Positions 1 to 16,602 of a stretch of 16,602 bases of DNA are shown in pieces; the stretch's first letter is position 1; every line of letters starts with the position of its first letter. Source of the DNA: Promethearchaeota archaeon (lineage in GTDB: Archaea > Asgardarchaeota > Lokiarchaeia > Sigyniarchaeales > SOKP01); the NCBI GenBank assembly GCA_019058015.1, contig JAHLWH010000018.1, forward strand, positions 1-16,602. The letters are read 5' to 3'. The translations under genes were made by a program, and so were the position numbers. The notes beneath the pieces were generated by a model that made no database searches, was not told the DNA's origin, and saw only the letters and a list, made by a program, of their open reading frames with translations.

Positions 1-704
1 ATCATAACATCTGATTCCCACCCAACACATCCATAATTAGCAGCTAATTCTGCAGCTTCAATTGTATTTTCCGGGGCAAGATGAGACGCCCCTCGATGAG
101 CAACAATACCAGGTTTAGGAGGTAAAGGACCTTCAATAACATTTGCAGGTACATATAAAAAAGGCAGACTAAAGATAAATCCATAAGCCGTGATAAAACA
201 AATTAAAATCAAAATGGATTTAGGTTGTCTTATTGATGTCTTTATTATTGAAATAATTGGGTCTAGAATAATTATTACACCAATAGCAACTCCAATAAAA
301 ATTAATATATTTATAGTCTCAAAAAGATGAGATACTATTGCAGCTTCCTCGCCGAATAGATTTAACATTATAAATAAAAGTGCATTAAAAATAACAATAA
401 GAATTATTGCAATAATTTTATGAACTATATGAGGATCAATTCTATTTATTGTAAATATATTTTTAAGATTGATTATTAATAAAACAGCAGAATATACTAG
501 TGGAATTCCAATGATAATCAAAAAAATTAGAACATAATTTGCTTTGAATCCTATGAAATCTCCAAGATATTCATTAAATTCTGCCCAAAGCGGTTCTATC
601 GCAATAAGAATCATTTCAAAAATAAATAGACTAACAAAAGCTATTATGAAAACTAAAAGCCATTTTTTACCTTGTTTTCTATAAAATGATTCATACCAAG
701 GCAT
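1..704 (-). CDS. Glycerophosphodiester phosphodiesterase (GDPD) family protein with N-terminal multi-pass membrane region; runs off the left window edge
   Basis: Not in the ORF track. Manual translation from ATG at 704 (MPWYESFYRKQGKKWLLVF...) gives ~185 mostly hydrophobic residues. The same frame later reads GIVAHRGASHLAPENTIEAAELAANYGCVGWESDVM, which contains the GDPD HRG...PENT...E-x-DV signature. Confidence 0.88.
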   Translation of the reverse strand, partial: MPWYESFYRKQGKKWLLVFIIAFVSLFIFEMILIAIEPLWAEFNEYLGDFIGFKANYVLIFLIIIGIPLVYSAVLLIINLKNIFTINRIDPHIVHKIIAIILIVIFNALLFIMLNLFGEEAAIVSHLFETINILIFIGVAIGVIIILDPIISIIKTSIRQPKSILILICFITAYGFIFSLPFLYVPANVIEGPLPPKPGIVAHRGASHLAPENTIEAAELAANYGCVGWESDVM

Positions 705-740
705 AATAACTAAATATTCACTTCAATAATTAATAAAAAT

Positions 741-2402
741 TTAGTTATGATTATTCGATTTTCTTATTTTTTTATGTTTTAAAATTTGACCATTTAAAAC
801 GCCTAAATGCTCTCCTTTTGCAACAGTGATTTTACCGTTTACAATGACATAATCAATACCCTCGGGATATTGACGACCATTTTCATATGTCGAATTATCT
901 CTAATTGTTTGAGGGTCAAAAATAACTAAATCGGCTTTATAATTTTTTTTGACTATTCCTCTATCTCTAAGTCCCAAAATGCCTGCGGGTAAAGAAGTCA
1001 TTTTCCGAATAGACTCTTCTAAAGATACAATTTGCTTCTCTCTAACATATCTTGATAAGATTCTAGGAAAGGTACCATAAGAACGGGGATGGGTATTTCC
1101 TTCAATAACTAAAAATCCATCAGAACCTACACAAACAAAATCTTGTTTAAATAATGATAAAATACTTTTCTCCTCACTCATCTGCCTCATGGAGATCATT
1201 ATGGAGCCTTCTTCATCTCTAATGAAATCTAATACAGCATCATAAAATGATCTTTTTGGATAAAGAATTTTTAGTCCTTCGCCTAAATATTTTCCTTCAA
1301 TATGATGGTTTTTTAAAACACTAATAATTCTTATGTCTTTCTTGAAAGAGGAAAAAATTAGTTTTTTCATTAAGAGTTTTGGAATAATCCGAATAATGAA
1401 AGGAAGATCTGATAAAAAAGTCGAGAATATCATATTTAGGATTTCTGTAACAATTTTTTTCCTTGACTCTGAATTGGTTAAATTTTGTACAAAATCATCA
1501 TAAACCCAAGGGTTAAGTAGAATGCCTGATAAGCTGGTTGAAGATTCTTCATAAGGATATAAATCTGCATGAAGAAAAATTCCTTATTCTTTAGCATTTT
1601 TAATCAGTTTTATGATATCAGAAGTTAATTTCCATGCATATTTACCTATAGTTTTTAAATGAGAAATATGGGCACGAATATTCGAATTTTTGGCAATCTC
1701 TATAACCTCTCTAATTCCTAGTTCCATTATCCTTGTTCCTTCATTTCTCATATGTGTATCATATAAACCTCCATAATTATTTACAACCTTACAAAGTTCA
1801 ATAATTTCATATGTTGGTGTGATTGAACCCGGAGGATAAACCAATCCCGTAGATAAACCAAAGGCGCCCATTTCCATTTCCTTTTTTACTATTTTTTTCA
1901 TTTCCTCCAGTTCTTCTGATGTAGCTGGATGATCTTCCAATCCTAAAATGCAAACTCTTACATTTCCGTGGGGTATAAAAAAAACAAGATTCGTTGAAAC
2001 GCCTTTTTTCTTGAGTGCTTCCATATAATCTTGAAGGGAATCATATAATTGTGATGCTGATGAACCAAAAGCCTTAGATATAAAGTTAGAATAATATTTT
2101 CGAACTTTTTCATTTGCGGGTGCTCGCCCAATTCCACACATCCCTACTACAAGTGTTGTAACACCCTGCATTATGGAGGCTTCTGCTTTATTTACTTCTA
2201 ATATAGTTAAATCAGCATGAGAATGCATGTCAATAAACCCGGGTGCAATTATTTTATTTGAAACATCAATTATATCATATCCATCTCCCTCTAAATTTGA
2301 ACCAATCTTTAGAATTTTATTATCTTTTATTGCAATATCGGATTTATACCTTGAAGAACCAGTTCCGTCAATTATCCATCCATTTTTTAGTAGAATTTCC
2401 AT
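741..2402 (-). pseudogene. N-acyl-D-amino-acid deacylase (D-aminoacylase, amidohydrolase_3 family) interrupted by a single in-frame TAA at 1584-1586
   Basis: ORFs 1584..2402 and 741..1433 are in the same frame. The gap translates without further stops as AKE*GIFLHADLYPYEESSTSLSGILLNPWVYDD... Family motifs present: IIDGTG, APGFIDMHSH, QGVTT..GMCG, GLSTGLVYPPG, HMRNE, HISHLK, DxYPY, GSDG, HPRSYGTFPR, ADLVIFDP. Restored length is 553 codons. Confidence 0.85.
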
Positions 2403-2545
2403 TAATTCTTTACCTTAATACTCTTATCATCAATAAAAACGGTTGATTATATTTTGAATTAATTAAACGATCTTAATTTTTATTAATTATTTTCGATATC
2501 TTAAGATTTTTTTAGGTAAGAATTAATATTTATGTTAGTAAATTG

Positions 2546-3241
2546 ATGTTTGAAAGATATGAATCCCGTTTTGAAGCGGGAATTATTTTAACGAAATTCA
2601 TAGAAAAGTTAAATCCAGAATTAAACGATTCAATTAGAGAAAATTCCAAGAATTATTTTTGTTTTTGTATTCCAAATGGCGGAGTACCGGTTGCTGAAGG
2701 GTTTTGTAGTGAATTCAATATATCATATGATTTATTAATTGTAAGAAAAGTTAAGATACCGTATAATCCAGAGGCAGGATTTGGTTCAGTTACAACAGAT
2801 GGAACTGTCCTATTAAACGATTATCTGTTATCTCATTTAGGATTAAATAAGGCAGAAATAAGTAAATCAATAGAAATAACTAAACAAGAGATCCAAAACA
2901 GGTTAGAGTTTTATAATATTTCTTTAGATTTAGAAAATAGATATTCTCATATTAAAAATAAAACACTTTTTGTCATTGATGATGGATTAGCTTCTGGTTT
3001 TACGATGTTAGCTGCTATAAAAATGTTGAAGAAGTATAATCCAGCGTCTATTTATGTTCCCGTACCAACAGCATCGAAAAGTGCAGAGAAATTAATAATA
3101 AATGAGGTTGATGGTCTGTTTTGTCCTAATATACCAAATACATGGCATTTTGCCGTTGCAAATGCATATAAATATTGGTATGATGTACCTGAGAAAGAAG
3201 TGAAAGAGATCCTTTCTAGATCTAAATTTTACCTAAAGTAA
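2546..3241 (+). CDS. Type I phosphoribosyltransferase family protein
   Basis: PRPP-binding loop VIDDGLASGFTM, plus PNGGVPVA, IVRKVKIPYNPEAGFGSV and VPVPTAS motifs of the uncharacterised PRT subfamily. ATG at 2546 is preferred over TTG at 2543. Confidence 0.9.
   Translation: MFERYESRFEAGIILTKFIEKLNPELNDSIRENSKNYFCFCIPNGGVPVAEGFCSEFNISYDLLIVRKVKIPYNPEAGFGSVTTDGTVLLNDYLLSHLGLNKAEISKSIEITKQEIQNRLEFYNISLDLENRYSHIKNKTLFVIDDGLASGFTMLAAIKMLKKYNPASIYVPVPTASKSAEKLIINEVDGLFCPNIPNTWHFAVANAYKYWYDVPEKEVKEILSRSKFYLK
3197..3241 (+). repeat. Direct repeat copy 1: 3' end of the PRT gene (EVKEILSRSKFYLK*), candidate attL
   Basis: 37/45 nt identical to 7769-7813; 13/14 residues and the TAA stop are conserved. 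Confidence 0.85.
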
Positions 3242-3362
3242 TTTATAAAAAAAATCGGGTATAACCATAAATTAATTTTTTTTGAATTTTAATAATTTAT
3301 GTATTAAATATAGAAATTTATCAATTTTCTTTAAAGTGCATTTGCTTTAAATATTAATATTT

Positions 3363-3390
3363 ACTTATCATAATGTGAATTATGACGAAA
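3363..3390. other. dif/Xer-like 11-6-11 inverted-arm site (alternatively a transcription-factor operator), copy 1
   Basis: ACTTATCATAA-TGTGAA-TTATGACGAAA. CATAA-N6-TTATG core as in known dif sites. Arms match 16320-16347 at 17/22 positions, while the spacer differs. Confidence 0.45.
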
Positions 3391-3645
3391 TGGTAAGGTT
3401 TCTAAAAAATTCGTTTAAAGGATTTCCCCATTTAATACAAACTACTAAAAAAATAAAGAATATATATTATAAAATAAAAGTTAAAAAATCATTTAACCCA
3501 CAAGATATTTAAATTTATATAAGTCATTAACCTCCAATTTAATTAAAAAAGAAACTTCAAGAATGATATATTTAAATAGTTAAATATAGAAAATTTTCAT
3601 TAATAGATAAGACAAAACGCGAATTTCAATTGGATATTTTTTATT

Positions 3646-6600
3646 ATGAAAGAATTTAAGGTTAATAAGTACATCACTCTAAAATTGGAAAATGGCCAGA
3701 CAGTAATCTATGTTAATGGTGAGTGGTTTTATCAATGCAAATTTTTATTACTAAATATTCCCGTTGATGAAATTAAATCATTTGACGAAATTGAGTCAAT
3801 TGACGAGGCTGTAGAAAAATTAGACAAATCTTTGGAGGGAACGTGCGATAGTATTATAATTCCTCCAGAAGTTGAATTTTGGGGACATTGTTCAAATTTA
3901 CAAGTATGGTATGAAAATGGTTACAACACAAGATTGTTGCATAGAAACATAGCTTTTCCGTTATTAAGAAAGCTAGCAAAAGCCAATGATCCTGTTGCAA
4001 AGAAAGTATTTAATGAAGAGGTTGCTAAAAGGCTAAAGAGCGGTTACCCTTCAGTAGTGGAATATTTGGTATCAAACGGATATATTGAGTACGAGATCAA
4101 CGAGTACATAACTCTAAGTTTGGAAAGTGAAGAATATGAGGATGAAACCCTTTACTCCAGTTATAAAGAATCCGAATATTACAAAGAAGATTACGAAGAA
4201 AGAATATATAGTCTATGGTATGTTGTAGTTCATATTAAAGAAAAAAGGTATATTAAATTTGAATTGTGGCTTTTCGAATATTTTTTCGAAGAACCCGAAT
4301 TTCTCGAAAGGTGTGACGAATGTATCTGGTGGGATGACAGAGAGAAGATTTATTATATTGGTGAAGATAGAGAAAAATACTATGAAACGGATGTGAAAGC
4401 TCTATTAAATCAATTTTTTAAATGCTGTTCAAAAGTAAAATTCTGGGCTAAAAGCAATTACGATTCCAAATTAATAAATCCGATTTTAGGATTTTCTATA
4501 CTCAAAAAATTAACTGAAATAGGAGAGCCAATATCTAATAGAGTTTTCAAAAAGGAAATCATAAAAAACCTTCGAAATTTCCAAACATATTTTTTATCAT
4601 TTTTTCTAGAAGAGGATTACCTGTCTTATTTAAATAAAAATGATTTCGAATCAATCAAACTAAATCCCGAAATACCGAGCTATATATTAGATGTTTTAGA
4701 AAACCTATTTTCTGAATACTTTGAGAAACTTTGCGAAATAGCACCGAGTTTATTCGAAGGAGTTTTTCTCGAAGTGTTAAAGAAGAACGATTTTAATTTA
4801 ACTAAAGATCTAATCAGAAATGGTTTTCTTATATATCTGAAAGAAGATGAATTAAAATCAAGGTTAGCGGAACTATATTCAGAAAGATTAATTCCGTTCT
4901 ATACTGTTTTTAAAAGTAAAGAGATTAAATTTATAGATGAAAAAAGCGAATTAGGTTTAAGAGTAGAAACGATTGAGGAAATTTCAAATCTCGAATCCAT
5001 AGGGAATCCTAAAAAAATAAAAAAATTAATATTAGATAGCAGGAAGGATATTTCTAATATTCAAGGACTTGAAAAATTTACAAATTTAGAAGAATTATGT
5101 CTCCATGGTAATGAGATTTCAGAAATTAGAGGTCTTGAATCTCTTCTTAATTTGAAAAAATTAGACCTTTCGAGAAATCATATTTCTGAAATCAAAGGAC
5201 TTGAAAATCTTACTAAATTAGAAGAGTTAAATCTTAATTCCAATGAAATTTCTGATATTTGTGGTCTTGAGAAATTAACAAATTTAAGAAATTTGAATCT
5301 TTCCCAAAATAAAATACATGAAATTAAGGGACTTAAAAATCTCGTAAATTTAAGAAAATTATACTTAGGTAATAAGATTTCAGAAATTAATGGACTTGAG
5401 AGACTTAAAAATTTGGAGGAATTATGGCTTGCAGGAAATATTACAGAATTAAAAAATCTGGAAAATCTCAAGAATTTACGGTATTTAAACCTTAAAGAGA
5501 ATAAGATCTCTGAGATTAAAGGCCTTGAAAATCTTAGAAGATTAGAGAAATTATTACTTAATAAAAATCAAATCATGGAGATAAAAGGTATTAAAACGTT
5601 AAAAAATCTAAAACACTTGGGACTTTGTGATAATCAGATCTTCGAAATTAAAGAAATTGAAAATCTTCCTAATTTAGAAGAATTAGAAATAAAAGGAAAT
5701 AAGGTACCATCTCAAATTATTAACCAATTAGGTGGATATGATTGTCAATACGCCAAAGATATCCAAAATTTTATCGAATATTCCCGCTTAAAAAAAGAAG
5801 GTTCTATTGATTATGTTACATTTAAAAGTATAAAATACAACGTTTTCAATAATAAGCTCGAATTAAGGCATTTAGAGATAGAAGACATCTCAGAAATAGT
5901 TGGTTTGAATAGATTAATTAAATTAAATGAGCTGAATCTCGAGGGAAACCGAATTTCTGAAATAAAACATCTCGAAAAACTCATCAATTTAGAGATTTTA
6001 AACCTTAATGAAAATCAGATTACCAAAATAAATGGTCTCGAAAAGCTCATTAATTTGGAAGTGTTAAACCTCAACAAAAATCATATTTCAGAGATTAAAG
6101 GGTTAGAAAAGCTTGTAAATTTAAAATATTTAGATCTTGATGGGAATAAGATCTCTGAGGTTAAAGGACTTGAATATCTTACTAAGTTAGAAAATCTAGA
6201 ATTAAGAGAGAATAAGATACCTAAACAACTTTTAGATGAATGGGGGTGGGGGTGGAGACCTCAAAAATTAGTAGAATATTGTCGGTTGAAGAAAAAAAAG
6301 CCGTTCGAATTTGTACTTTATAAAGGTAATAAGTATGAAATCTATAATGATAAATTAAATTTAAATAGTTTAGATATAAACAACATTTCTGAAATCATTG
6401 GTTTGGATAAATTTATAAATTTAAAAGAGTTAGACTTAGAACATAATCAAATTTCCAAGATTAGTTGTCTCGAAAAACTCACAAATTTAAAGGTTTTAAA
6501 TCTAGGGTGTAATAATATAAATAGAATAGAATCTCTTAACAATTTAATTAATTTGGAAAAATTATATCTGTGTAGCAATCAAATTCATAAAATTGAAGGT

Positions 6601-7389
6601 CTTAATAATCATATTAATTTGGAGAAATTAGATCTGGGAGGTAATCAAATTCGAGTAATTAATAATCTTGATAAACTTAGAAATCTAAAACAGTTAGATA
6701 TTGAATCAAATCAAATAACTGTAATCGATGGACTCGAAAAGCTTGTAAATTTAGAATCTCTAAATTTAAACAATAATCAAATCTTAGAAATAAAGGGACT
6801 TGATAATCTTACAAACCTAAATATATTAAAAATATATCATAATAAGATTACGAAAATACAAGGGCTTGAAACTCCCGTTAATTTAGAGAAATTAGATCTT
6901 TTTAATAATCGAATCACTGAAATCAAGGGAGTGGATAATCTTATAAATTTAAGGGAACTTAATTTAGGGGATAATAGTATTAGCGAGATAAAAGGACTTC
7001 AAAATCTGAAGAATTTACAAGATCTACGACTATTTAATAATCATATTTTTGAAATCAAGGGAGTGGATAATCTTAAAAATTTAAGGGAACTTGATTTAGG
7101 GGATAATAATATCAGCGAGATAAAAGGACTTCAAAATCTGAAGATTTTACAAGATCTACGGCTATTTAATAATCATATTTTTAAAATCAAGGGCTTAGAA
7201 AATCTTAAAAATTTAAAAAAGTTAAAGATTGAAAAAAACTTGATTTCTCGGAAAATAATAGATTCTTTAGGAGGATATCAAAGGTATCATACTGGAACTG
7301 GAATGAAAGCTCCCACAAATGGTGTAGAGGTCCCTCAAAATTTCGTTAAATATTGTCAACAACAAAAAAATTTAGAGAAAAAGATCTAA
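3646..7389 (+). CDS. Large leucine-rich repeat protein (SDS22-like 22-aa LRRs) with duplicated Lokiarchaeia-type N-terminal domain
   Basis: About 30 LxxLxxLxLxxNxIxxIxGLxx repeats in three blocks. The N-terminus FKVNKYITLKLE...EFWGHCSNLQVW.E..Y.TRLLHRNIAFPLL.KL is a domain I recognise from Loki LRR proteins. A degenerate second copy starts at YEINEYITLSLE. Confidence 0.92.
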   Translation: MKEFKVNKYITLKLENGQTVIYVNGEWFYQCKFLLLNIPVDEIKSFDEIESIDEAVEKLDKSLEGTCDSIIIPPEVEFWGHCSNLQVWYENGYNTRLLHRNIAFPLLRKLAKANDPVAKKVFNEEVAKRLKSGYPSVVEYLVSNGYIEYEINEYITLSLESEEYEDETLYSSYKESEYYKEDYEERIYSLWYVVVHIKEKRYIKFELWLFEYFFEEPEFLERCDECIWWDDREKIYYIGEDREKYYETDVKALLNQFFKCCSKVKFWAKSNYDSKLINPILGFSILKKLTEIGEPISNRVFKKEIIKNLRNFQTYFLSFFLEEDYLSYLNKNDFESIKLNPEIPSYILDVLENLFSEYFEKLCEIAPSLFEGVFLEVLKKNDFNLTKDLIRNGFLIYLKEDELKSRLAELYSERLIPFYTVFKSKEIKFIDEKSELGLRVETIEEISNLESIGNPKKIKKLILDSRKDISNIQGLEKFTNLEELCLHGNEISEIRGLESLLNLKKLDLSRNHISEIKGLENLTKLEELNLNSNEISDICGLEKLTNLRNLNLSQNKIHEIKGLKNLVNLRKLYLGNKISEINGLERLKNLEELWLAGNITELKNLENLKNLRYLNLKENKISEIKGLENLRRLEKLLLNKNQIMEIKGIKTLKNLKHLGLCDNQIFEIKEIENLPNLEELEIKGNKVPSQIINQLGGYDCQYAKDIQNFIEYSRLKKEGSIDYVTFKSIKYNVFNNKLELRHLEIEDISEIVGLNRLIKLNELNLEGNRISEIKHLEKLINLEILNLNENQITKINGLEKLINLEVLNLNKNHISEIKGLEKLVNLKYLDLDGNKISEVKGLEYLTKLENLELRENKIPKQLLDEWGWGWRPQKLVEYCRLKKKKPFEFVLYKGNKYEIYNDKLNLNSLDINNISEIIGLDKFINLKELDLEHNQISKISCLEKLTNLKVLNLGCNNINRIESLNNLINLEKLYLCSNQIHKIEGLNNHINLEKLDLGGNQIRVINNLDKLRNLKQLDIESNQITVIDGLEKLVNLESLNLNNNQILEIKGLDNLTNLNILKIYHNKITKIQGLETPVNLEKLDLFNNRITEIKGVDNLINLRELNLGDNSISEIKGLQNLKNLQDLRLFNNHIFEIKGVDNLKNLRELDLGDNNISEIKGLQNLKILQDLRLFNNHIFKIKGLENLKNLKKLKIEKNLISRKIIDSLGGYQRYHTGTGMKAPTNGVEVPQNFVKYCQQQKNLEKKI
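6919..7182 (+). repeat. Tandem 132-bp duplication (two LRR units) inside the LRR gene
   Basis: 6919-7050 and 7051-7182 differ at 6 of 132 positions. A partial third copy begins at 7183. Confidence 0.95.
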
Positions 7390-7451
7390 AGGCTCACATG
7401 GTTAAAAACTTATTTAAAGTATTTCATAGGTTTTTCTTTAAGAAATGTGTG

Positions 7452-7557
7452 AGGGGCTTGACCAATTCAGTGACCCCCCAAAGTAATACAGGATTAGAGT
7501 ATTAATTTGAATGTCTTGGGGATTGCTGACCGGCGAATGGTTTACATTCTGACCCCT
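7452..7557. ncRNA. Candidate structured ncRNA or foldable ssDNA element, family unknown
   Basis: About 46% GC (51/110 over 7451-7560) in much more AT-rich flanks. Nested complementary segments: AGGGG/CCCCT, TCAG/CTGA, CCCCAA/TTGGGG, TAATAC/GTATTA, plus side hairpin GAATG-N5-CATTC. Confidence 0.45.
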
Positions 7558-7768
7558 GTGTGTTAATTAATAATAGAACAATTATTAATTTAAATTTAAG
7601 GCAAAAATATAAAAAATTTTAATCAGGTTACAATTTTAATAAATCTATTAAATTGTTCCATTTTTGGCAAGAGTTAACTTCGATCAAATATACCTCATTT
7701 ATTTGCCCCATTTCAAGAATAGACCGAAGCTTATGGTAATAATTTACATAATTACTGAAGAATTGTTA

Positions 7769-7813
7769 GAGGTAAAAGAAATCCTTTCAAAGTCTAAATT
7801 TTATTTAAAGTAA
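7769..7813 (+). repeat. Direct repeat copy 2: displaced 3' fragment of a PRT gene (EVKEILSKSKFYLK*), candidate attR
   Basis: gag gta aaa gaa atc ctt tca aag tct aaa ttt tat tta aag taa versus 3197-3241. Six synonymous third/first-position changes and one R>K codon change. Confidence 0.85.
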
Positions 7814-7851
7814 TAATTAGAAAAATTAATAAAAATTTGGACTCCTAAATC

Positions 7852-7886
7852 TTTATATATAATTGATACTGTGAGTGTCATAGTAT
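7852..7886 (+). promoter_or_regulatory. TATA box plus palindromic operator upstream of padR (probable autoregulatory site)
   Basis: TTTATATA at 7852-7859, followed by ATACTGTGA-GTG-TCATAGTAT (7866-7886, 8/9 inverted match) covering the expected transcription start region. Confidence 0.65.
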
Positions 7887-7945
7887 ATAATTAACAATAT
7901 AAAAATAAATACTATAATAAAATAAAAAATAAAAAACACACAGAG

Positions 7946-8491
7946 ATGAGAAAAATTATAAGACGAGTAAAAGAATTAGGGCCAACAGCTTTAATTGCAT
8001 CAAAAGAATTCAGAAGTTTCGTTGAAAAATTTGAATCTGAAATAAATCGCGGCATTAGTACACTATGCATATTATCCATTATTAATCAAGCAGGAGATAA
8101 AGGAATGTATGGCTACAAAATTCTTAAAGAATTAGAAGAACAAACAAATAATATGTTAGTTATTGAGGAGGGTACCCTTTATCCTCTTCTGAGAAAACTT
8201 GAACGAGATAAACTGATTAAATCGGAACGGAGAGAATTTAGTGGAAGACCAAGAAATTATTATTTCATGACTGAAAATGGTCTTAAGATCTACAATCATA
8301 TTAATGGCTTTTTCACCAAACTAACTGAATCTATTTCACCATTGATGGATATGAATGTTAATTTAAAAGAGGATTATATTTATTGCCCAAATTGTGCGAA
8401 TAAAATTGATATTTCTAAAGAAGATTTGTATTTTTGCGAGATCTGTGGTTTAAATATTAGAGACTTAAAAGAAAGGAGGTTAAAAAAATGA
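7946..8491 (+). CDS. PadR-family transcriptional regulator with C-terminal zinc ribbon
   Basis: RG...LCILSII, MYGYKILKEL, EEGTLYPLLRKLE and GRPRNYYFMTENG PadR motifs; C-terminal CPNC-x12-CEIC. Confidence 0.92.
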   Translation: MRKIIRRVKELGPTALIASKEFRSFVEKFESEINRGISTLCILSIINQAGDKGMYGYKILKELEEQTNNMLVIEEGTLYPLLRKLERDKLIKSERREFSGRPRNYYFMTENGLKIYNHINGFFTKLTESISPLMDMNVNLKEDYIYCPNCANKIDISKEDLYFCEICGLNIRDLKERRLKK

Positions 8492-9540
8492 GTCAAGATA
8501 TGGAAGCAATGGTAAAAAAATACTTAAAAAATGTGAAGGAAAAATTACCTGAATGGTTAAAAGACAAAAAGAAGGAAGCCAAAGATATTTTGGCTGAACT
8601 TGAGGGACATATTTGGGAAAAAGCTGAAGAATTATCAGATATTAATCAACCTACTGAGGATTCGGTACGATTAGCAATAGCCCATATGGGAACACCAGAA
8701 AGTATAGCAAGGGAGTACAAGCGTCGAGGAACACCTAAATATTACATAACAGAGGAACTTTGGCCACTTTATACGAAAGTTTTGAAAATAATACTTGTGG
8801 TAATAATTGCAATTGCTATTTTTTCTACAGTATTAAATGTAATGACAGGTAACTTAGAAGAGGCTTTAAGTTTTTTCGGTTATTTCAATTATTTCATGGG
8901 ATTTTTTTCAGCATTTACAATAGTGTCAATAATTTTTGTTGTTTTATCAATGGAAGGTTATTTTCCTGAAGATTTCAAATCAGAAAGAGAACTTAAGAAG
9001 GAGGCTCGTCGGCTTGAAATCGCTCGAGAAAAGGGATTACCTATATCTCCCAGGACTGGGAAACCTTTAAAACCTTTTATAAGTCCCATTGGTGAAATTA
9101 TTGGAGGAATCATTGTGGTTAGTATTGGTATATTTCTTATAACACTTCCTATTCCAGGTTTATTTAATTTAATGAATCCGGAATTTCTATTAATACTTCG
9201 TATTTTTGGAATGTTTACATTAATAGAAGGAGTATTGGATACAACTCGTGGTGTTATTGGAAATTATCAAGTAAAGACCCATCAGGTAATTCATATAATA
9301 ACGATTGGAGTTAAATTAGCTGTAATACCATTAGCTGTTATTCTTTGGAGTCGCCCTGATATAATTCCTTTTCTAAATTGGGATGATTCAACAAATACTT
9401 TGGTTTATATAGGAGTATCACCAGAATTTTATGATTTTTGTAGAAATTTAATGGCTGTAGTAATAGTAATAATGATAGTTGTTCCAATAGAAGACATATA
9501 CAAAATCATAAAGTTGGAAAAATATAAAGTAAAAAATTAA
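8488..9540 (+). CDS. Membrane protein with N-terminal HAAS-type (PadR-associated) helical domain
   Basis: YLKNVKEKLP...DILAELEGHIWE...AIAHMGTPESIAREY matches the HAAS/DUF1700-like pattern. About six hydrophobic segments follow. ATGA overlap with padR implies translational coupling. Confidence 0.8.
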   Translation: MSQDMEAMVKKYLKNVKEKLPEWLKDKKKEAKDILAELEGHIWEKAEELSDINQPTEDSVRLAIAHMGTPESIAREYKRRGTPKYYITEELWPLYTKVLKIILVVIIAIAIFSTVLNVMTGNLEEALSFFGYFNYFMGFFSAFTIVSIIFVVLSMEGYFPEDFKSERELKKEARRLEIAREKGLPISPRTGKPLKPFISPIGEIIGGIIVVSIGIFLITLPIPGLFNLMNPEFLLILRIFGMFTLIEGVLDTTRGVIGNYQVKTHQVIHIITIGVKLAVIPLAVILWSRPDIIPFLNWDDSTNTLVYIGVSPEFYDFCRNLMAVVIVIMIVVPIEDIYKIIKLEKYKVKN

Positions 9541-9547
9541 AAATCTA

Positions 9548-9564
9548 TTTTTTTTTTCTTTTTT
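9548..9564 (+). terminator. Oligo-T archaeal-type terminator after the padR operon
   Basis: T10-C-T6 tract starting 8 nt after the stop codon at 9540. Confidence 0.5.
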
Positions 9565-9566
9565 AA

Positions 9567-9959
9567 TTAAAGTTTTAATTCTGCTTTAATGTAATTCTCA
9601 TTTTTCTCTTGAATGGTTACGTTTTTATCATTTATGAGAATTGATGTAATTTCTAATATGGTTGGTATTAAAACCAGAATTTTAGAAACTTTTTTGCTAA
9701 TTTCTATCTTTATTGATTTGTCCTTCAGTTCTGCTTTAATATCAATGATTTCTTCATCATCTATGATTTTATATTCAATTTTATCTGTTTCTTTTCGAGG
9801 CGCTATATATAAGGTTAAAGTATCCAAATGTATTTCATCCACATATTGTATCACCGGTCCAAGCGGTAGGATCGTCCCCCCTTTAATAAAGAATGGATGT
9901 TTCAATCGTTCTTTAAGATAAAAAAGAAAGAGTTTTAAAATATTAATTTGTAATGCCAA
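9567..9959 (-). pseudogene. Probable C-terminal remnant of a GH31 glycoside hydrolase (distal beta domain, DUF5110-like)
   Basis: PFFIKGGTILPLGPVIQYVDE resembles the GH31 P(L/V)F(V/I)(R/K)xGxI(I/L)PxGPxxQY junction motif. No catalytic domain is present upstream, the start is TTG, and the first ~20 residues look unrelated. Confidence 0.6.
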
Positions 9960-10079
9960 TTTCTTTTACCTCAATTATTTTATTGAATTCAATTATTCTT
10001 TACTTAATTATAATTATTACATTTAAATTTAGTAGAAATTGTAATTATAATAAGAAAGATTCGATTATTAAAATGTATT

Positions 10080-11042
10080 ATGATGATTCAGACTAATCAA
10101 GAGATACAAGAGAGCCAAAAGTTAATATTAAATCTTAAAAAAGAGAAAGATGTTACAATTCTTGCTCATTATTATCAAACCTTGGAAATTCAAGAGATCG
10201 CAGATTTTGTAGGAGGTTCTTTAGGACTTTCAAAAATTGCTAGAGATCATATCAATACAAAAAATATCATTTTTGCTGGAGTTCTTTTTATGGCAGAAAC
10301 GGCTTCCATTTTAAATCCCGCAAAAAGAGTGCTAATGCCAGATAAACAAGCCGGTTGTCCTTTAGCTTCATTTCTTGATGGAAATACGGTGAATACGTAT
10401 AAGGAAAAATATCCGAGGGTGCCAACAGTTGTTTATATTAATTCTACGGCTGAAACAAAAGCAGAAACCGATGTTGTATGTACATCTTCAAATGCAATTA
10501 AGGTAGTACAAGGAATACAAAATGAATTTAAATCTAAGAAAGTTTTATTTGGACCAGATGAGAATCTTGCTGATTATGTGAAACAAAAAACAGGGATAAA
10601 TATCATCAATTTGCCAGATGAAGGATTTTGCTATGTTCATAATGTCATTAAAGATTTGGATGTTATTAAAGTTAAAAAGGAACATCCAAATGCATTAATC
10701 ACTGTACATCCAGAATGTAAAAGGGAGGTAAGAGAGCTTGCTGATCATATAGGTTCCACTAAGGGAATGTATGATTACGTTAAAAAAAATGCTTCAAAGG
10801 GAAATGAATTTATAATTGGTACTGAGCTTGGATTCGTCCAACGAGTTCAAAAAGATTTTCCAAATAATAAAATTTATCCCATAAACGAAAATTTTATTTG
10901 TAGAAATATGAAACTATCCACTTTAGAAAAAATATTTAATTTGCTAAATAATTTGAATAATGATAAACATAAAGTCACAGTACCAGACAATACTGCAAAT
11001 AAAGCAAGAATTAGTCTTGAAAAAATGTTAAAATATTCCTAA
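10080..11042 (+). CDS. nadA: Quinolinate synthase
   Basis: ILAHYYQ, FAGVLFMAETA, AGCPLA, YINS, CTSSNA, PDENL, CYVH, HPEC, GST, GTE, CRNMK. All three [4Fe-4S] cysteines are present. Confidence 0.96.
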   Translation: MMIQTNQEIQESQKLILNLKKEKDVTILAHYYQTLEIQEIADFVGGSLGLSKIARDHINTKNIIFAGVLFMAETASILNPAKRVLMPDKQAGCPLASFLDGNTVNTYKEKYPRVPTVVYINSTAETKAETDVVCTSSNAIKVVQGIQNEFKSKKVLFGPDENLADYVKQKTGINIINLPDEGFCYVHNVIKDLDVIKVKKEHPNALITVHPECKREVRELADHIGSTKGMYDYVKKNASKGNEFIIGTELGFVQRVQKDFPNNKIYPINENFICRNMKLSTLEKIFNLLNNLNNDKHKVTVPDNTANKARISLEKMLKYS

Positions 11043-11210
11043 ATTTCTACTTGATTAATCTGGAAAATTTAAATTAGTAAATTATTAAATAAAATATAGC
11101 AAAAATATTTTAAACAAAATTAAGATATTAGAATTATAAAAATATTGAAAAGAAAAATCAAATTAACAACAATATATAATAATACAAATCAAAAATCACT
11201 TAAAACTTAA

Positions 11211-11603
11211 TTGAGGTTGAAGAAGATTCCGATAGGTATAATTATCATTAGATGGGATAACGATCTCGGCCCAATCAGCGAAGCTTTTTATCCAGAGAAT
11301 CTAAAAATCACAAATAATCTATTAACTCAAGTTTACAGCTCCCACAGATATCAATCATTGAACCCTGGGTTTGCCTCTATTTCACTAAAGAACAATAAAG
11401 TAGTATCCTTTTTCTCTGGCGTTGGCGATAATTTTGTGGAGATTGAGAATTACGTTGTAGCATTAGTATTACGTAGAGATGAACAAACCCATAAGTATAG
11501 AGAAATTCTTAAAAAAATTGCCGCTGAGATTTTAGGAAAAGTAAGGGATGGTGATTACAAAAAAGCGCTCCCATCGTTATATAAAGAACTTGCAAAAATT
11601 TAA
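11211..11603 (+). CDS. Stand-alone uDENN/longin-like domain protein (C9orf72/NPRL2-type N-terminal motif)
   Basis: Hydrophobic strand + WDNDLGP + FYP, then helix, three strands and two helices, consistent with longin topology. Start uncertain: TTG 11211, TTG 11217 or ATT 11226. Confidence 0.72.
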   Translation: MRLKKIPIGIIIIRWDNDLGPISEAFYPENLKITNNLLTQVYSSHRYQSLNPGFASISLKNNKVVSFFSGVGDNFVEIENYVVALVLRRDEQTHKYREILKKIAAEILGKVRDGDYKKALPSLYKELAKI

Positions 11604-11621
11604 GATTGGAGGAAAAAAAAT

Positions 11622-12629
11622 TTATTCTTCCAAAAAATCCATTTTTAATACTACTTCTCCAAGATCGTTATATTCAAAAATATTTGCGTCAATTAATTTT
11701 TCTACGTATTTTTGAATAGTTACAGTAGGTATCCCCAATGCATTCTTCAAATCAGATAAAGATATGTGTTTTATTTGTCTGACAATTACAAATGCCTTGA
11801 ATAGCGGTTCTTCTTCAAAAAGAGGTTGTAGTCGATTAAAAAATTCAATAACTTCAATATTCTTATTTTTAAAATCAGTCAGTTCTGTTATTTGGTTGGT
11901 CAGGCGTTTTACTTCCTCCTGCATCTCTTTGTTTTCTTGATCTCGTTTATCATATTTAGTAATCAAATCATCATATCTCTTGACCATATCCTCGTGTAAT
12001 TTTTGAGCAGTTTCTTTTGCTGATATGGACTCTTTTGTTGTGAGTTTATCTTCTAAAATCTGCGACTCTAACGATTTAACCTTATCTTCCAACTCCATCT
12101 TCTCTGTTAAAGCCTTTTCCCGTATAGTTTTAATCTGCTCTTCATATCCTTCTTTAATATTTTTCTCTACAGTTTCTAATTCCTTGATTCGAATTTTTAA
12201 ATTATTTATTTCTTCGGTTTTAAATCTAAATTTTGTGTCGATCTCTGCAATTGTAGTTTTTAGATCTCCAACAGTTTCAGATTTAACTTCCATCATCTCT
12301 TGTAAAGGTTTAAATTGTTCTTTAAGCAATTCCATTTCTTTTTGTACTTCTGCAACTGTTGCGTTAGCAAGTTCAAGTTGAATGGACTTCTCAGATATTT
12401 CAGCTCTTTGTTCACCAATCAATGTTTTCAGTTCAATTACATCTGCTGGGACATCATACATTGAATCAATTTTCTGTTTTTGCTGTTCAATAACTGCATT
12501 CTGATCTGCAATTATATTTTTTTGTTTTTCAACTATTTCAGTCAGCCGGTCAATTTTTGCTTGAGCACGTGCACTTTCTTTTTCTTGACCTTCTATTGAG
12601 TCAATTAAATTTTTAATATCTTTAGACAT
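11622..12629 (-). CDS. Long coiled-coil protein with C-terminal winged helix-turn-helix
   Basis: About 265 aa of E/K/Q-rich heptad sequence, then FKAFVIVRQIKHISLSDLKNALGIPTVTIQKYVEKLIDANIFEYNDLGEVVL (HTH plus beta wing). Confidence 0.8.
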   Translation of the reverse strand: MSKDIKNLIDSIEGQEKESARAQAKIDRLTEIVEKQKNIIADQNAVIEQQKQKIDSMYDVPADVIELKTLIGEQRAEISEKSIQLELANATVAEVQKEMELLKEQFKPLQEMMEVKSETVGDLKTTIAEIDTKFRFKTEEINNLKIRIKELETVEKNIKEGYEEQIKTIREKALTEKMELEDKVKSLESQILEDKLTTKESISAKETAQKLHEDMVKRYDDLITKYDKRDQENKEMQEEVKRLTNQITELTDFKNKNIEVIEFFNRLQPLFEEEPLFKAFVIVRQIKHISLSDLKNALGIPTVTIQKYVEKLIDANIFEYNDLGEVVLKMDFLEE

Positions 12630-12710
12630 TTTTAAAAATCATTCCGACTTGAGTTATTAATTATTAAAGCTAGTGAGAATTAAATCTTATATTTATTTAT
12701 ATTTATTTAT

Positions 12711-13280
12711 ATGCTGACCAAATGTTTTTACTTTTATTCTTCAGAGTTAGAAAAAAACATTATTATTTTATATCGTTTAAAAAGTTCTAAAGTTTTTCTT
12801 GAAAGTGTGAATTTGATAGATAGTAGAAATCTCTCCAATTTTATTTCAGAGAATGATTTTATTGTTGAAAAATTTCAAAGTGTTAATAATATCTCGTTAA
12901 TAAATATGATTAAAATTATTAATTCATGTCTTAAAGGGGAAAGAGTTAATCTATATGACAGAATTTGTAAATTAGGAATAATTATTGATTATAAAAAAAC
13001 TTTTAAAACAGATTTTGCTTCAAGTGTAATAAGAGAATTATTAAAGGTGAAATATGGCGAAACCATTTCCTATTCAGAATTGGCTTCTAAATTAAACTCA
13101 AAGGCATATAGAGCTGTTGGGAGTATAATACATAAAAATCCGTACCCAATAATAATTCCTTGCCACCGTGTGATTAACAAAAATGGGACGATCGGTGGAT
13201 TTATGGGATCAAATAATGATGAATCATCAATAAATATTAAAAGAAAATTAATTAAACTTGAAAAAAATAGTAGAAGCTGA
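12711..13280 (+). CDS. ogt: Methylated-DNA--protein-cysteine methyltransferase (MGMT)
   Basis: YGETISYSELA, AYRAVG, and NPYPIIIPCHRV active-site motif. Confidence 0.93.
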   Translation: MLTKCFYFYSSELEKNIIILYRLKSSKVFLESVNLIDSRNLSNFISENDFIVEKFQSVNNISLINMIKIINSCLKGERVNLYDRICKLGIIIDYKKTFKTDFASSVIRELLKVKYGETISYSELASKLNSKAYRAVGSIIHKNPYPIIIPCHRVINKNGTIGGFMGSNNDESSINIKRKLIKLEKNSRS

Positions 13281-13296
13281 AAAAATAATCATAAAT

Positions 13297-13629
13297 TTAT
13301 TCAGTATTTTTTAAATCGGGTAATCTCTCAAAAACTAATTCTAAACCTTTTTTACTTAAAGCAACAATATCTTTATTTTTATTTTCTACATGATTCTGGA
13401 AAAAAGGTATCAACTGTTTAGCAAAATTCCTATAATTAGTTATGTTATCTCTTTTTATATGCTTTGCCATATTATTAAATTGAATATCCAATTCCGTCAA
13501 AAGCCATAAAAGAGATTCATTTTGAGATTTTCTTAATTCCAACGTCAATTTATTTGGGTCTGCGACTTTTTGTAAATCAAGATATTTAGATGTGTATTCA
13601 CCTTTTTTATTATTTTCCCAAGCACTCAT
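13297..13629 (-). CDS. Hypothetical helical protein (110 aa)
   Basis: ATG-initiated ORF with normal composition filling the gap between genes; no motif recognised. Confidence 0.65.
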   Translation of the reverse strand: MSAWENNKKGEYTSKYLDLQKVADPNKLTLELRKSQNESLLWLLTELDIQFNNMAKHIKRDNITNYRNFAKQLIPFFQNHVENKNKDIVALSKKGLELVFERLPDLKNTE

Positions 13630-13906
13630 TCTTTTATACCAGATTTTAAGTAATTTTAAGTCGTTGTTTATTATCTGAACTTACTACCAAACTTCAATTA
13701 ATGTAAAGTAAAATGACTATTAAAAGTTTATAAATTTTAAATAAGAACGTGCTATGCGTTAAAATTATAAAAATTCATGAGATATTTAAAAATAAATATT
13801 ACCGTAATATGATAAAAAAATAGTTTCTTAATAATTAGAAAAAAAAGAAAATGTTAAAAAAAAACATTCAATTTAAATTTTGAAATAAAATTATGAAGGA
13901 AGATCT

Positions 13907-14140
13907 TTACTTCAATTCTTTCATATCTTCTTTCATGATCGTCTTTCTTTTTAATTCTCCTTTTGATTTTCCTTTCGATTTCTTTGGTAATATATCAATA
14001 ATTTGTTGAATGTTGGCCTCAACTTGTCGATCGAGCCATTTAATCACATCATCTTTGACATCTCCAGCCCTTCTTATCCCTAATTTACTAAAATACTCAT
14101 CTATGCGGCTTTTCATTAAAAATTTACTTTTATATGCCAT
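13907..14140 (-). CDS. Atypical histone-fold protein with lysine-rich insertion and short alpha3
   Basis: C-terminal RKTIMKED matches the histone L2/alpha3 RKTIxxED motif with the usual R-x6-D spacing. alpha1 LMKSRIDEYFSKLG, L1 IRRAGD, amphipathic alpha2. Confidence 0.72.
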   Translation of the reverse strand: MAYKSKFLMKSRIDEYFSKLGIRRAGDVKDDVIKWLDRQVEANIQQIIDILPKKSKGKSKGELKRKTIMKEDMKELK

Positions 14141-14541
14141 TTTTTTTTTCCCTCTTTTTTTCTAGGTTAAAATTAATAAAATGAAGAAAATCATTCTTCT
14201 ATTGATATAATTATTTTCTTTCTTAGTTTTTAAATGTTTTATTTTTACCTTATCTAGATATTGATATTTTTGATTTTTTTTAATAAAAATTTAAATGTTT
14301 TTAACAGGATTATAGAAAAATTTAAGAGAATTTTGTTCTTTTTATTGGCAATATTTTTATCTAATCAGTTTTTTAAGGGATTTGTAGAGAATCTGGCATT
14401 TTTAAACATCCGTTGAGAAATTTACTTAAATTATGACTATTAGTTCATTATATTTGAAGAAATTAACTATTTCAGAAATAATATTTAAATTAAAAATGTT
14501 ATACATTATTTATCAATTAGAATAAAAAATGGTTATGAGTA

Positions 14542-16254
14542 ATGTCTTTAAAGGAGATTAAACCAAAAACTTCTGTTGCGTATTTCAGCATGGAAATTGC
14601 ACTTGACTCAAATATACCTACATATAGCGGTGGTCTTGGTGTTCTATCAGGAGATACTCTTCGGTCTGCAGCAGATTTAGAAATTCCAATGGTTGCTGTG
14701 TGTTTATGCTACTCATCCGGATATTTTTTTCAATTGTTCGATTCAGATGGTCGACAACAAGAAAAGGATATAAAGTGGAATTTTTATTATGAATTCGAAA
14801 AAATTCTTCATCCCATTAAGATACAAATTCAAGGGAAGGAAATTGTAATCTCTGCTTGGAAATATAACGTAGTAGGACAGAGTGGTCACATAATTCCGGT
14901 TTATTTATTGGAGACAGATGTAGAAGAGAACGAGCCGTGGCAGAGAGATCTTACACATGTTTTATATGATTCGACCAGTAGATTTCATAGAATTGTTCAA
15001 GAGATGATTTTAGGAATTGGAGGTATTCGATTACTTAAATCGCTTCATTATGATAACCTTCAAGTATATCATATGAATGAAGGGCATGCCGCTTTCATCA
15101 CTTTAGAATTATTGAAAGAATTTAATGGCAATTTGGATAAAGTAAAAGAAAAATGCGTTTTTACAACTCATACACCTGTTCCTGCAGGACATGATAAATT
15201 TGACTATAATTTAGTAAATGATGTATTTAGGAATAATTTACCAAGTAATTTAAGGGAATTGGGAGGGAAAAAAGAATTGAACATGACCATTCTTGCAGCA
15301 AATTGTTCGAGATACATTAATGGAGTTTCTAAAAAGCATGGTCAAGTAGCACAAGAGATGATGCCACAATATAAAATTGATTATATTACAAATGGCATTC
15401 ATTTGCCTTATTGGGTTTCAGAACCATTTGACGACATTTTCACAGAAAAGTGGCCTAGATGGAAGATGAGGCCAGATTTTCTACAAAATGCAATAGAACT
15501 TGAAGATCTAGACTTATTTGATGCACATAATGAAAACAAGTTTAAATTGATATCTTATCAAAAAGCGCATTCCTGGAATTTATTAGACGAAGAATTAATA
15601 ACAATTGGATTTGCTCGTCGTTTTGCAACTTACAAGAGAGCCACTTTACCATTTTATGATATCGATCGATTAGGAAAAATCTGTAAGGATAAAGTTCAAT
15701 TTATTTTTGCTGGGAAAGCTCATCCAAAGGATCAAATGGGTAAGGATTTTATTAAAAAGATATACGACAACAGTATTTATTTGTTTGATAATTATAGAGT
15801 AAAAGTTGTTTTAATGGAAAACTATAATATGGATTTATCCCATTTAATAACGGCGGGAGTTGATGTTTGGCTAAATTGTCCTGATAGATATAGAGAGGCT
15901 TCAGGTACTAGTGGAATGAAAGCAGCCTTAAATGGCGTGTTAAATTTTAGTGTTCTTGATGGGTGGTGGCTTGAAGGATACAAAAAGAATCGGTTGGCTG
16001 GATGGGCAATCGGTCCAGATGATTCGGATCCCGACGCGATAAAAAATGATTGGAATAAAGATGCTGAATCACTTTACACGGTATTAGAAAATGAGATTAT
16101 TCCCACTTACATGGACCAGGATGAGTGGCTTTGGCGGATGAAAAATGCCATTGCACTTTCTGCGTATTTCAATACTCACAGAATGATAAATGATTACGCA
16201 GAAAAATCCTGGAATTTAATTAGACAGGATCCTTGGAAATATGTCCCAATTTAA
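14542..16254 (+). CDS. glgP: Alpha-glucan (glycogen/maltodextrin) phosphorylase, GT35
   Basis: AYFSME, YSGGLGVLSGD, HMNEGH, FTTHTPVPAGHD, GFARRFATYKRA, AGKAHP, and the PLP-lysine motif EASGTSGMK. Confidence 0.96.
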   Translation: MSLKEIKPKTSVAYFSMEIALDSNIPTYSGGLGVLSGDTLRSAADLEIPMVAVCLCYSSGYFFQLFDSDGRQQEKDIKWNFYYEFEKILHPIKIQIQGKEIVISAWKYNVVGQSGHIIPVYLLETDVEENEPWQRDLTHVLYDSTSRFHRIVQEMILGIGGIRLLKSLHYDNLQVYHMNEGHAAFITLELLKEFNGNLDKVKEKCVFTTHTPVPAGHDKFDYNLVNDVFRNNLPSNLRELGGKKELNMTILAANCSRYINGVSKKHGQVAQEMMPQYKIDYITNGIHLPYWVSEPFDDIFTEKWPRWKMRPDFLQNAIELEDLDLFDAHNENKFKLISYQKAHSWNLLDEELITIGFARRFATYKRATLPFYDIDRLGKICKDKVQFIFAGKAHPKDQMGKDFIKKIYDNSIYLFDNYRVKVVLMENYNMDLSHLITAGVDVWLNCPDRYREASGTSGMKAALNGVLNFSVLDGWWLEGYKKNRLAGWAIGPDDSDPDAIKNDWNKDAESLYTVLENEIIPTYMDQDEWLWRMKNAIALSAYFNTHRMINDYAEKSWNLIRQDPWKYVPI

Positions 16255-16270
16255 AATATTGACTCTCTAG

Positions 16271-16284
16271 TTTTTTTTCCTTTT
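16271..16284 (+). terminator. Oligo-T terminator after glgP
   Basis: T8-CC-T4 tract 17 nt after the stop codon. Confidence 0.45.
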
Positions 16285-16319
16285 AAATTTAACGGCAATC
16301 GATTTAAAGTATTGATAAT

Positions 16320-16347
16320 ACTTCTCATAATATAGTTTATGGCATAT
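16320..16347. other. dif/Xer-like 11-6-11 inverted-arm site (alternatively a transcription-factor operator), copy 2
   Basis: ACTTCTCATAA-TATAGT-TTATGGCATAT. Left arm is 10/11 identical to 3363-3373. Confidence 0.45.
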
Positions 16348-16466
16348 TCTATAAATAATCGATTAATTATGAAAAAGTTTATAAATATGATATAGCGTAT
16401 GTTTTAAATGACTAATTAGAAATGAATTGCATATTAACAAATGGAAAAAAAAGAGTTGATATAATT

Positions 16467-16602
16467 ATGGCTGAGTCTGATATTTTATTGGAAATAAAAA
16501 AAGCAGTACTCGAAGGTGAGGATGATTTGGCCTATGATTTAACCCAAAAAGCGCTCAAAGAAGAGATTGAATCTTTACGAATAGTGAATGAAGGTGTTGT
16601 AC
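16467..16602 (+). CDS. Corrinoid (cobalamin-binding) protein, N-terminal cap domain; runs off the right window edge
   Basis: Not in the ORF track. MAESDILLEIKKAVLEGEDDLAYDLTQKALKEEIESLRIVNEGVV fits the B12-binding cap pattern (AV.EG....A..L...AL...I....I.NEG) of methyltransferase corrinoid proteins. Confidence 0.8.
   Translation, partial: MAESDILLEIKKAVLEGEDDLAYDLTQKALKEEIESLRIVNEGVV

Follow-up and report, generated by a model that had tools for sequence, protein, structure and literature searches.

Arguments about how chromatin arose draw on the histone repertoire of the Lokiarchaeia, a class that counts among the closest relatives of eukaryotes in culture. A small gene in a contig from one member of this class (Promethearchaeota archaeon, GenBank assembly GCA_019058015.1, contig JAHLWH010000018.1, positions 1 to 16,602, hereafter the window) raises the question of what its 77-residue product is: a histone, and if so of which class, and what the lysine-rich stretch in its middle might do. 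A first-pass annotation, made from the DNA letters, had described it as a histone variant, non-nucleosomal and from an Asgard archaeon, in which a tail-like segment rich in lysine, serine and glycine (K/S/G) had been placed internally, next to the DNA-contacting loop.

Here, we find that the protein is, judging by profile comparison and structural modelling, a divergent histone-fold homologue, that its gene very likely adds a new member to HLoC, a family named in 2026, and that the K/S/G stretch is the most conserved part of that family.

The gene is a 77-codon open reading frame (ORF) on the reverse strand at 13907-14140, with an ATG start and a TAA stop at 13907-13909 in the ORF listing. The window has a G+C content of 28%. 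The ratio of nonsynonymous to synonymous substitution rates (dN/dS) against two orthologues from the same genus was 0.069 for one (19 of 231 nt differ) and 0.078 for the other (24 of 231 nt); a third pair, with locus L011, is saturated at synonymous sites and yields no value. These low ratios, together with homologues across the family and presence throughout the genus, indicate that the ORF is no chance product of AT-rich DNA: it is a real gene under purifying selection.

In all histones the paired loops L1 and L2 contact the DNA backbone. Arg23 sits in L1, and R65-K66-T67-I68 is followed by E71-D72, with a spacing of 7 from R65 to D72. Counting from R23 to R65 gives 42 residues; the K/S/G stretch occupies P52 to L63, histidine is absent from the protein, and D72 is followed by five residues. 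All the sequence features that the first-pass annotation had listed are present. The protein thus keeps the universal histone signature as given in PMC13260811, namely R-K-T plus a hydrophobic residue, an R-D clamp and the L1 Arg. Its isoelectric point (pI) is 9.9 and its net charge +9, of which +5 comes from the loop. The gene and its segments are as follows.

13907..14140, reverse strand: coding sequence of the 77-residue HLoC-type histone-fold protein, stop codon included (ORF listing, purifying selection, homologues).
14114..14128, reverse strand: residues 5-9, a conserved N-terminal segment that pairs with itself at the dimer centre in the model (predicted contacts 9:9, 8:8 and 8:7).
14084..14113, reverse strand: residues 10-19, helix α1 (AlphaFold2 with the 41-sequence alignment, block pLDDT 90; pLDDT is the model's predicted local distance difference test score).
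14066..14083, reverse strand: residues 20-25, loop L1, whose Arg23 is nearly invariant (alignment and model; touches residues 66-70 of the partner).
13991..14065, reverse strand: residues 26-50, the long central helix α2 (model; antiparallel self-crossing at 39/40 in the dimer).
13949..13990, reverse strand: residues 51-64, a fixed-length basic loop, L-P-x-K-S-K-G-x-x-K-G-x-L-K, net charge +5 (conservation, spacing and charge).
13925..13948, reverse strand: residues 65-72, the L2 histone signature R-K-T-I ... E-D, with the R-D clamp at spacing 7 (sequence; R65, T67 and D72 nearly invariant).
13910..13924, reverse strand: residues 73-77, end of a truncated α3 stub (model helix at 70-74 only).

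An exhaustive search of 1.84 billion cluster representatives returned 43 proteins at E ≤ 1e-3. One of them, P0022, is a 1182-residue repeat protein rich in Glu, Lys and Thr that matches in 17 stretches at 19% identity; we treated it as a low-complexity match and excluded it from the counts. Alignment A1 is made up of 41 sequences, namely the query, 15 orthologues taken from genomes, and the 25 of the 43 representatives that are single-domain proteins of at most 121 residues. It leaves out 18 representatives (P0004, 16 doublets or fusions, and P0022) as well as the loci L008, which is the same as L009, and L020, whose start codon is doubtful. Invariant or nearly so in A1 are R23, P52, K56, G57, K60, G61, L63, K64, R65, T67 and D72; each of the four signature residues (R23, R65, T67 and D72) is shared by 90% or more of the 41 members.

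The K/S/G stretch supplies the most conserved columns of the family, which settles a point that the first-pass annotation had left to be checked. Of 75 domain copies aligned to the family profile, 65 have exactly 12 residues between P52 and R65, and every one of the 45 single-domain proteins is among them. The remaining 10 (8, 9, 16 or 17 residues, or truncated) all occur in multi-domain proteins, nine in tandem doublets and one in a doublet behind a TIR domain (P0031). Because its columns are invariant or nearly so and its spacing is fixed at 12, the stretch is not tail-like; it appears instead to be a conserved loop of fixed length that defines the family, and not a lineage-specific insert. 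Since the 8-residue form contains one K-x-x-G turn and the 12-residue form two, the loop looks like a four-residue duplication that became fixed. It also carries the charge: the family median is +5 for the core, +5 for the loop and +1 for the remainder. The earlier idea of an internal segment beside the DNA-contacting loop therefore stands as to position, as the stretch adjoins the L1-L2 site and lies outside the predicted dimer interface, and falls as to its likeness to a tail. Extra DNA contacts or lysine modification through this loop remain plausible.

Profile comparisons link the family to histones. With hhalign, A1 matched an alignment of the genome's own PF00808 histones, six canonical copies, at 79% probability (score 32.3) along 63 columns that cover the entire fold; none of 100 column shuffles reached that score (mean 10.0, standard deviation 2.5, maximum 22.1), and the reversed alignment scored 12.0. 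Against nine histones of the face-to-face (FtF) type from sister lineages the probability was 67% (score 29.4), again with no shuffle among 100 reaching the observed value (mean 9.9, maximum 16.0) and with a reversed score of 10.5. The canonical and FtF-type alignments matched each other at 76%, and by this rough measure the three groups appear about equally distant. In the canonical alignment the extra length that had been noticed before L2 resolves into an 8-residue insertion in L2, residues 55-62. When the family profile was run on the gene's own genome, the only other match was a canonical tailed histone, at E 0.13.

Structural modelling points the same way. AlphaFold2 with the alignment gave a model of pLDDT 77.2 with helices at 10-19, 26-50 and 70-74; the loop is modelled at low confidence (block means of pLDDT 54-66). 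In a wide search with VIA-align, about 44 of the 50 listed chains were histone or histone-fold entries, judged by title. [quoted passage not shown] The weight of this result would lie in the consistency of the list and not in the Z values.

A homodimer was predicted with a score of 0.68, compared with 0.00 for the best of three controls, a mark reached by 20 of 30 solved homo-pairs and by 1 of 23 solved single chains. The prediction runs agree in at least 98% of contacts, and the partner has pLDDT of at least 84. The contacts are of the handshake type: α2 crosses α2 at 39/40, α1 lies on the partner's α2, and L1 (20-25) lies on the partner's L2 (66-70), while loop residues 49-65 stay outside the interface and adjoin the L1-L2 pair. 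Residues 5-9, with a conserved pattern of lysine, aromatic and aliphatic residues in the alignment, are the counterpart of the α1-α1 site in histone dimers. The dimer score may partly reflect the model's memory of solved histone dimers. Because profile comparison, model, structural matches and predicted dimer agree, we take the protein to be homologous to histones in fold. Two points of the first-pass annotation hold here: a histone fold, and an Asgard origin, the latter borne out by near-identical loci titled Promethearchaeota. The Foldseek comparison it had proposed gave no match in the Protein Data Bank (PDB) at E ≤ 0.001; the VIA list, obtained independently of Foldseek, is dominated by histone-fold chains.

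Which histone, then, is it? The 77-residue protein is not among the six PF00808 matches of its own genome. It resembles the nucleosomal archaeal histones (PF00808; the six here, of HLoA and HLoB types) in fold, in the L1/L2 signature and in the hhalign match over 63 columns, and differs from them in its L2 insertion and in having no PF00808 match, no histidine and no full α3. Read in this way, from sequence and model, the protein is not nucleosomal. Lacking the histidine and the full α3 of a four-helix-bundle tetramer, and with them the nucleosomal tetramerisation end, it would not be expected to form a hypernucleosome. The non-nucleosomal assignment of the first-pass annotation is upheld here; its term "variant", taken to mean a variant of the nucleosomal type, is not, as the protein appears to belong to a separate family about as far from canonical as from FtF-type histones. 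In the same genome, two of the six canonical histones (L004 and L005, on contigs C197 and C125) have N-terminal tails of about 10-13 residues that are rich in lysine; a 2026 preprint, cited below, discusses this HLoB-like type.

In that preprint HLoC figures as a divergent histone family not recognised before and limited to Loki and its relatives; the authors place it at the periphery of the histone sequence network and leave it out of further analysis (bioRxiv 10.64898/2026.07.02.735847). Several observations link our family with it indirectly. Loci 86-95% identical to the query (best segment, residues 1-77) are titled Promethearchaeota or Promethearchaeia, and homologues 45-47% identical, annotated as "hypothetical protein", occur in the cultured Ca. 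Lokiarchaeum ossiferum B35 and Promethearchaeum syntrophicum MK-D1. The family profile finds two copies in B35 and one in MK-D1, and PF00808 finds nine and seven. A 2024 review speaks of "nine and seven histone paralogs" in these strains (PMC10919886), and between them this review and the 2026 preprint also give totals of "11" and "8-11"; the sums 9 + 2 = 11 for B35 and 7 + 1 = 8 for MK-D1 fit the published totals.

The distribution fits as well. Run on 400 genomes of the phylum, with a match defined as E ≤ 1e-5, the family profile hit 30, of which 29 fall within the class of the window (families f1 to f7). It matched all four other genomes of the gene's own genus, in addition to its own genome, 0 of 130 from other genera of the same family, 14 of 14 in the sister family f2, which holds Promethearchaeum and Lokiarchaeum, 1 of 1 in f3, 2 of 4 in f4, and 7 of 7 in three other families of the class; the rest of the phylum gave 1 of 239, a weak partial match. 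By this indirect match of copy-number sums and Loki-limited distribution to the preprint, the family is very likely HLoC. A divergent histone fold, range and copy numbers are shared with the HLoC histones as described there, with no difference shown; the text of the preprint gives no description of the loop or its charge, of doublets or fusions, or of how the family is distributed relative to FtF histones. In a text search of the literature this preprint was the one relevant paper on HLoC histones, and no paper mentioned the locus tags or accession of the cultured-strain homologues. The family adds one or two histone-fold genes per genome to the repertoire; as far as the preprint and the public records go, the only paper naming it set it aside, and the records say "hypothetical protein".

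How might such a protein work? We lean towards a DNA-binding handshake homodimer of the Lokiarchaeia-restricted HLoC family, with two rigid basic loops enlarging its end sites, and regard this as the probable reading. Two copies of the 77-residue protein would form the usual histone handshake homodimer, and this predicted dimer would keep the universal DNA-contact signature of L1 Arg, R-K-T in L2 and R-D clamp. It would have neither known route to higher assembly, being without the nucleosomal four-helix-bundle end and without the FtF residues at positions -6 and -2. Between α2 and R-K-T lies the 12-residue loop, P-x-K-S-K-G-x-x-K-G-x-L-K-R, which resembles two K-G turns and holds essentially all of the net positive charge. 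The dimer could then be the working unit on DNA; one rigid basic loop at each dimer end may widen the L1-L2 contact site, and the loops might in this way compensate for the missing oligomerisation surface. Because no known oligomerisation surface is present, the outcome would be DNA that is bent or coated and not wrapped into nucleosome-like particles. The best functional analogy may be HBb (Bd0055; 8CMP, 9EZZ), likewise an α3-truncated dimer with R-K-T and no tetramer interface, thought of here as a dimer bending or coating DNA; the model of the 77-residue protein matches it at Z 4.4 and rmsd 2.5 Å over 55 residues. Unlike our protein, HBb is bacterial and lacks the enlarged L2 loop, and no significant sequence match between the two was found.

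Several results weigh against this reading. Pfam and NCBIfam scans of the protein gave no family at E ≤ 10, and PF00808 touched only one of the 41 family members, at E 0.12. All E-values from Foldseek against the PDB exceeded 1, the VIA-align Z values are ordinary for a small helical model, and the loop, on which the proposal leans, is the part modelled with low confidence. Acidic tails make some family members acidic as a whole, their pI reaching down to 4.4. Finally, a legend in the preprint equates HLoC with "face-to-face histone", which would imply a tetramer and not a dimer.

A broader proposal is that the family represents a third, loop-driven archaeal mode of holding DNA: a dimer without an oligomerisation surface, whose rigid lysine loops serve as possibly modifiable "internal tails", which replaces FtF histones where these are lacking and which supplies a DNA-sensing head to proteins with TIR, leucine-rich repeat (LRR) or WD40 domains. 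We consider this doubtful as a whole.

Its last element concerns the larger proteins of the family. Tandem doublets of the HLoC-type domain make up eight short proteins and also occur in several fusions. In three proteins of about 400-420 residues (P0007, P0015 and P0031) a C-terminal doublet stands behind TIR_2 domains, the second copy being truncated in P0031; a Promethearchaeum sp. contig opens with the gene of one such TIR-doublet (L080:1-537). One protein (P0006) carries a doublet behind SAP and Rho_N motifs, and a single HLoC-type domain is fused to LRRs in one protein and to a WD40-like propeller in another. A further architecture, which has no Pfam name, is found in proteins of 206-282 residues from families f4 and f5 (L075-L079): an N-terminal helical domain is followed by a basic linker, then by a single HLoC-type domain and by a C-terminal module of about 40 residues that is conserved. 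Tandem doublets are the expected product of a dimerising fold and so support dimerisation, and the TIR_2-doublet proteins could be defence or signalling proteins with a DNA-binding pseudodimer as head. A comparable design is seen in the Rab GTPase histones of Lokiarchaeota described in PMC11390915, in which an α3-type histone domain is fused to a eukaryote-like signalling domain, as in the TIR, LRR and WD40 fusions here; no GTPase fusion was found among the HLoC-type matches examined. According to the 2024 review, no histone doublets are seen in Lokiarchaeia (PMC10919886), a statement on which the lokiarchaeial HLoC-type doublets bear.

These fusions also feed a competing explanation, that the fold serves here as a protein-protein or signalling adaptor, of the kind of TAF, NF-Y or CENP, or as an RNA binder, outside chromatin and with the basic loop holding some other ligand. 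TIR_2 (three proteins), LRR and WD40-like propellers (one each) are typical signalling or defence modules, the 206-282-residue proteins join the domain to further helical N-terminal and C-terminal parts, the top structural matches are TAF and CENP chains and not nucleosomal histones, and some prokaryotic "histones" may not organise genomes (PMC11390915). Yet the L1 Arg, R-x-T and the R-D clamp are nearly invariant in the family, whereas the DUF1931 class is described without such residues (PMC11390915, PMC12701072); DUF1931 (PF09123) itself gave no match to the 77-residue protein and none above the cut-off in 61 genomes of the order. The pI is high, with the charge placed beside the L1-L2 site, and one fusion partner, in P0006, is the DNA-binding SAP domain, which we count in support of DNA binding. 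On this balance we judge an adaptor role unlikely.

Another competitor is an FtF-type α3 histone: two dimers would join as a torus-shaped tetramer wrapping about 60 bp of DNA, the arrangement solved for HLp and HTkC, and the loop would be mere decoration. It has the α3-truncated build on its side. Histones of that class are described as having an α3 of only 3-4 residues and an α2 that is 4-5 residues shorter than in nucleosomal histones (PMC11390915, Schwab et al. 2024), and the model agrees, with a stub at 70-74 and an α2 of 25 residues. The FtF histones (HTkC, 9F2C; HLp, 9QT0-2) further share with our protein a length of about 65-80 residues, homodimerisation (predicted here), a conserved Ser-Lys/Arg at the start of α1, and R-x-T-x4-D in L2. 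The best sequence match to a solved structure among histones, from the family profile against the PDB, is HLp (9qt0), at E 0.3. The first-pass annotation had seen a likeness of the α1 start to α3-truncated histones; this match and the 67% profile probability lend it slight backing, and 67% is no better than the 79% obtained with canonical histones. The residues that build the FtF tetramer argue against an FtF histone. The tetramer interface is described as using, counted from the L2 Arg, Arg at -6 and Asn at -2, together with the end of α2, L2 and α3 (PMC11390915, PMC12701072), and the FtF-type ORFs of sister genera carry this motif. In our family -2 is Leu63, in at least 90% of members, -6 is variable, and the 12-residue basic loop before the L2 Arg takes up exactly the surface of the FtF tetramer.

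Distribution speaks to both sides of this comparison. With a profile built from the 64-65-residue FtF-type histones of sister genera (genomes G005-G024 and others; for example L059:1501-1692), 94 of 98 genomes from other genera of the gene's own family matched; its own genus gave 0 of 5 (four others plus its own genome), f2 0 of 10, f5 0 of 3 and f6 0 of 2, and matches were found in f7 (2 of 2) and f4 (1 of 1). HLoC-type and FtF-type families largely alternate across lineages, so that the former stand mostly where the latter were not found, as a replacement would. Related genomes are not independent, however, and the number of real switches between families is thus small; functional replacement of FtF by HLoC-type histones is a lead only. 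In three genomes the two kinds of gene coexist at separate loci, a point against the FtF reading. The possibility that the FtF matches in f4 and f7 were the HLoC-type genes themselves, acting as intermediates, was rejected because the loci differ. All told, we hold a torus-forming FtF histone to be rather unlikely. The alternation, the tandem doublets and the fusions to TIR, SAP, LRR and WD40 domains may be new observations, and together with the fixed, charge-bearing loop they correct the idea of a disordered tail.

It is very improbable that the motifs and the three-helix model arose by chance in a small lysine-rich protein of an AT-rich genome, for although no curated family matches, Foldseek E-values all exceed 1 and a single-sequence model is poor (pLDDT 68.6, three roughly equal helices), hhalign goes far beyond shuffle and reversal controls for two independent histone alignments and spans the whole fold, the top structural matches are almost all histone-fold chains, and handshake-type contacts are predicted.

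Other searches around the protein gave little. A phmmer search of the PDB turned up nothing beyond a phage integrase (E 1.4), which we ascribe to chance, and the family profile found nothing there below E 0.03, its top three hits being AlkD-like HEAT repeats that align on α2 only and were likewise taken as chance. In a protein atlas the neighbours at 0.90-0.91 are clusters from viruses and Promethearchaeota, with histone clusters following at 0.86-0.87, all of them leads only; a scan of viral contigs gave 75 pattern matches and no relative of the family.

The histone-fold gene is a stand-alone gene, with about 400 bp between it and a divergent glucan phosphorylase gene and 277 bp between it and a downstream ORF of 110 residues. 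Two putative control elements precede it.

14150..14154, reverse strand: Shine-Dalgarno-like GAGGG, 9 nt 5' of the ATG (seen in four of five genus loci).
14199..14218, reverse strand: A/T-rich block about 60-75 nt 5' of the ATG, a candidate archaeal TATA/BRE element (still alignable in L028, the most divergent genus member).

A scan for sigma-70 promoters found 10 sites, compared with 7.2 ± 2.6 expected, and no terminators; this bacterial-type model is uninformative for an archaeon. The 110-residue ORF just downstream (window 13297-13629, reverse strand) is conserved in all five genus loci and has no Pfam match. Gene order is kept within the genus and differs in other lineages. A gene for 6-O-methylguanine DNA methyltransferase lies two genes downstream in the genus, and in other genera 7 of 15 loci have UvrA/UvrB upstream. 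That the histone-fold gene has a functional tie to such DNA repair genes was considered and rejected because the neighbours vary by lineage, the intergenic gaps measure 270-860 bp, and the orientations are divergent or convergent.

Elsewhere in the window, one in-frame TAA, at 1584-1586, splits an Amidohydro_3-type gene (741-2402, reverse strand) into two ORFs; the halves share a frame and jointly span the whole Pfam profile, which would fit a pseudogene or a sequencing error. A protein of 1247 residues encoded at 3646-7389 (forward strand) consists almost entirely of leucine-rich repeats (LRR_4, E 1e-93). At 7946-9540 (forward strand) a PadR-family regulator gene overlaps by 4 nt with the gene of a 350-residue HAAS-domain protein, a typical PadR/anti-sigma-like sensor pair.

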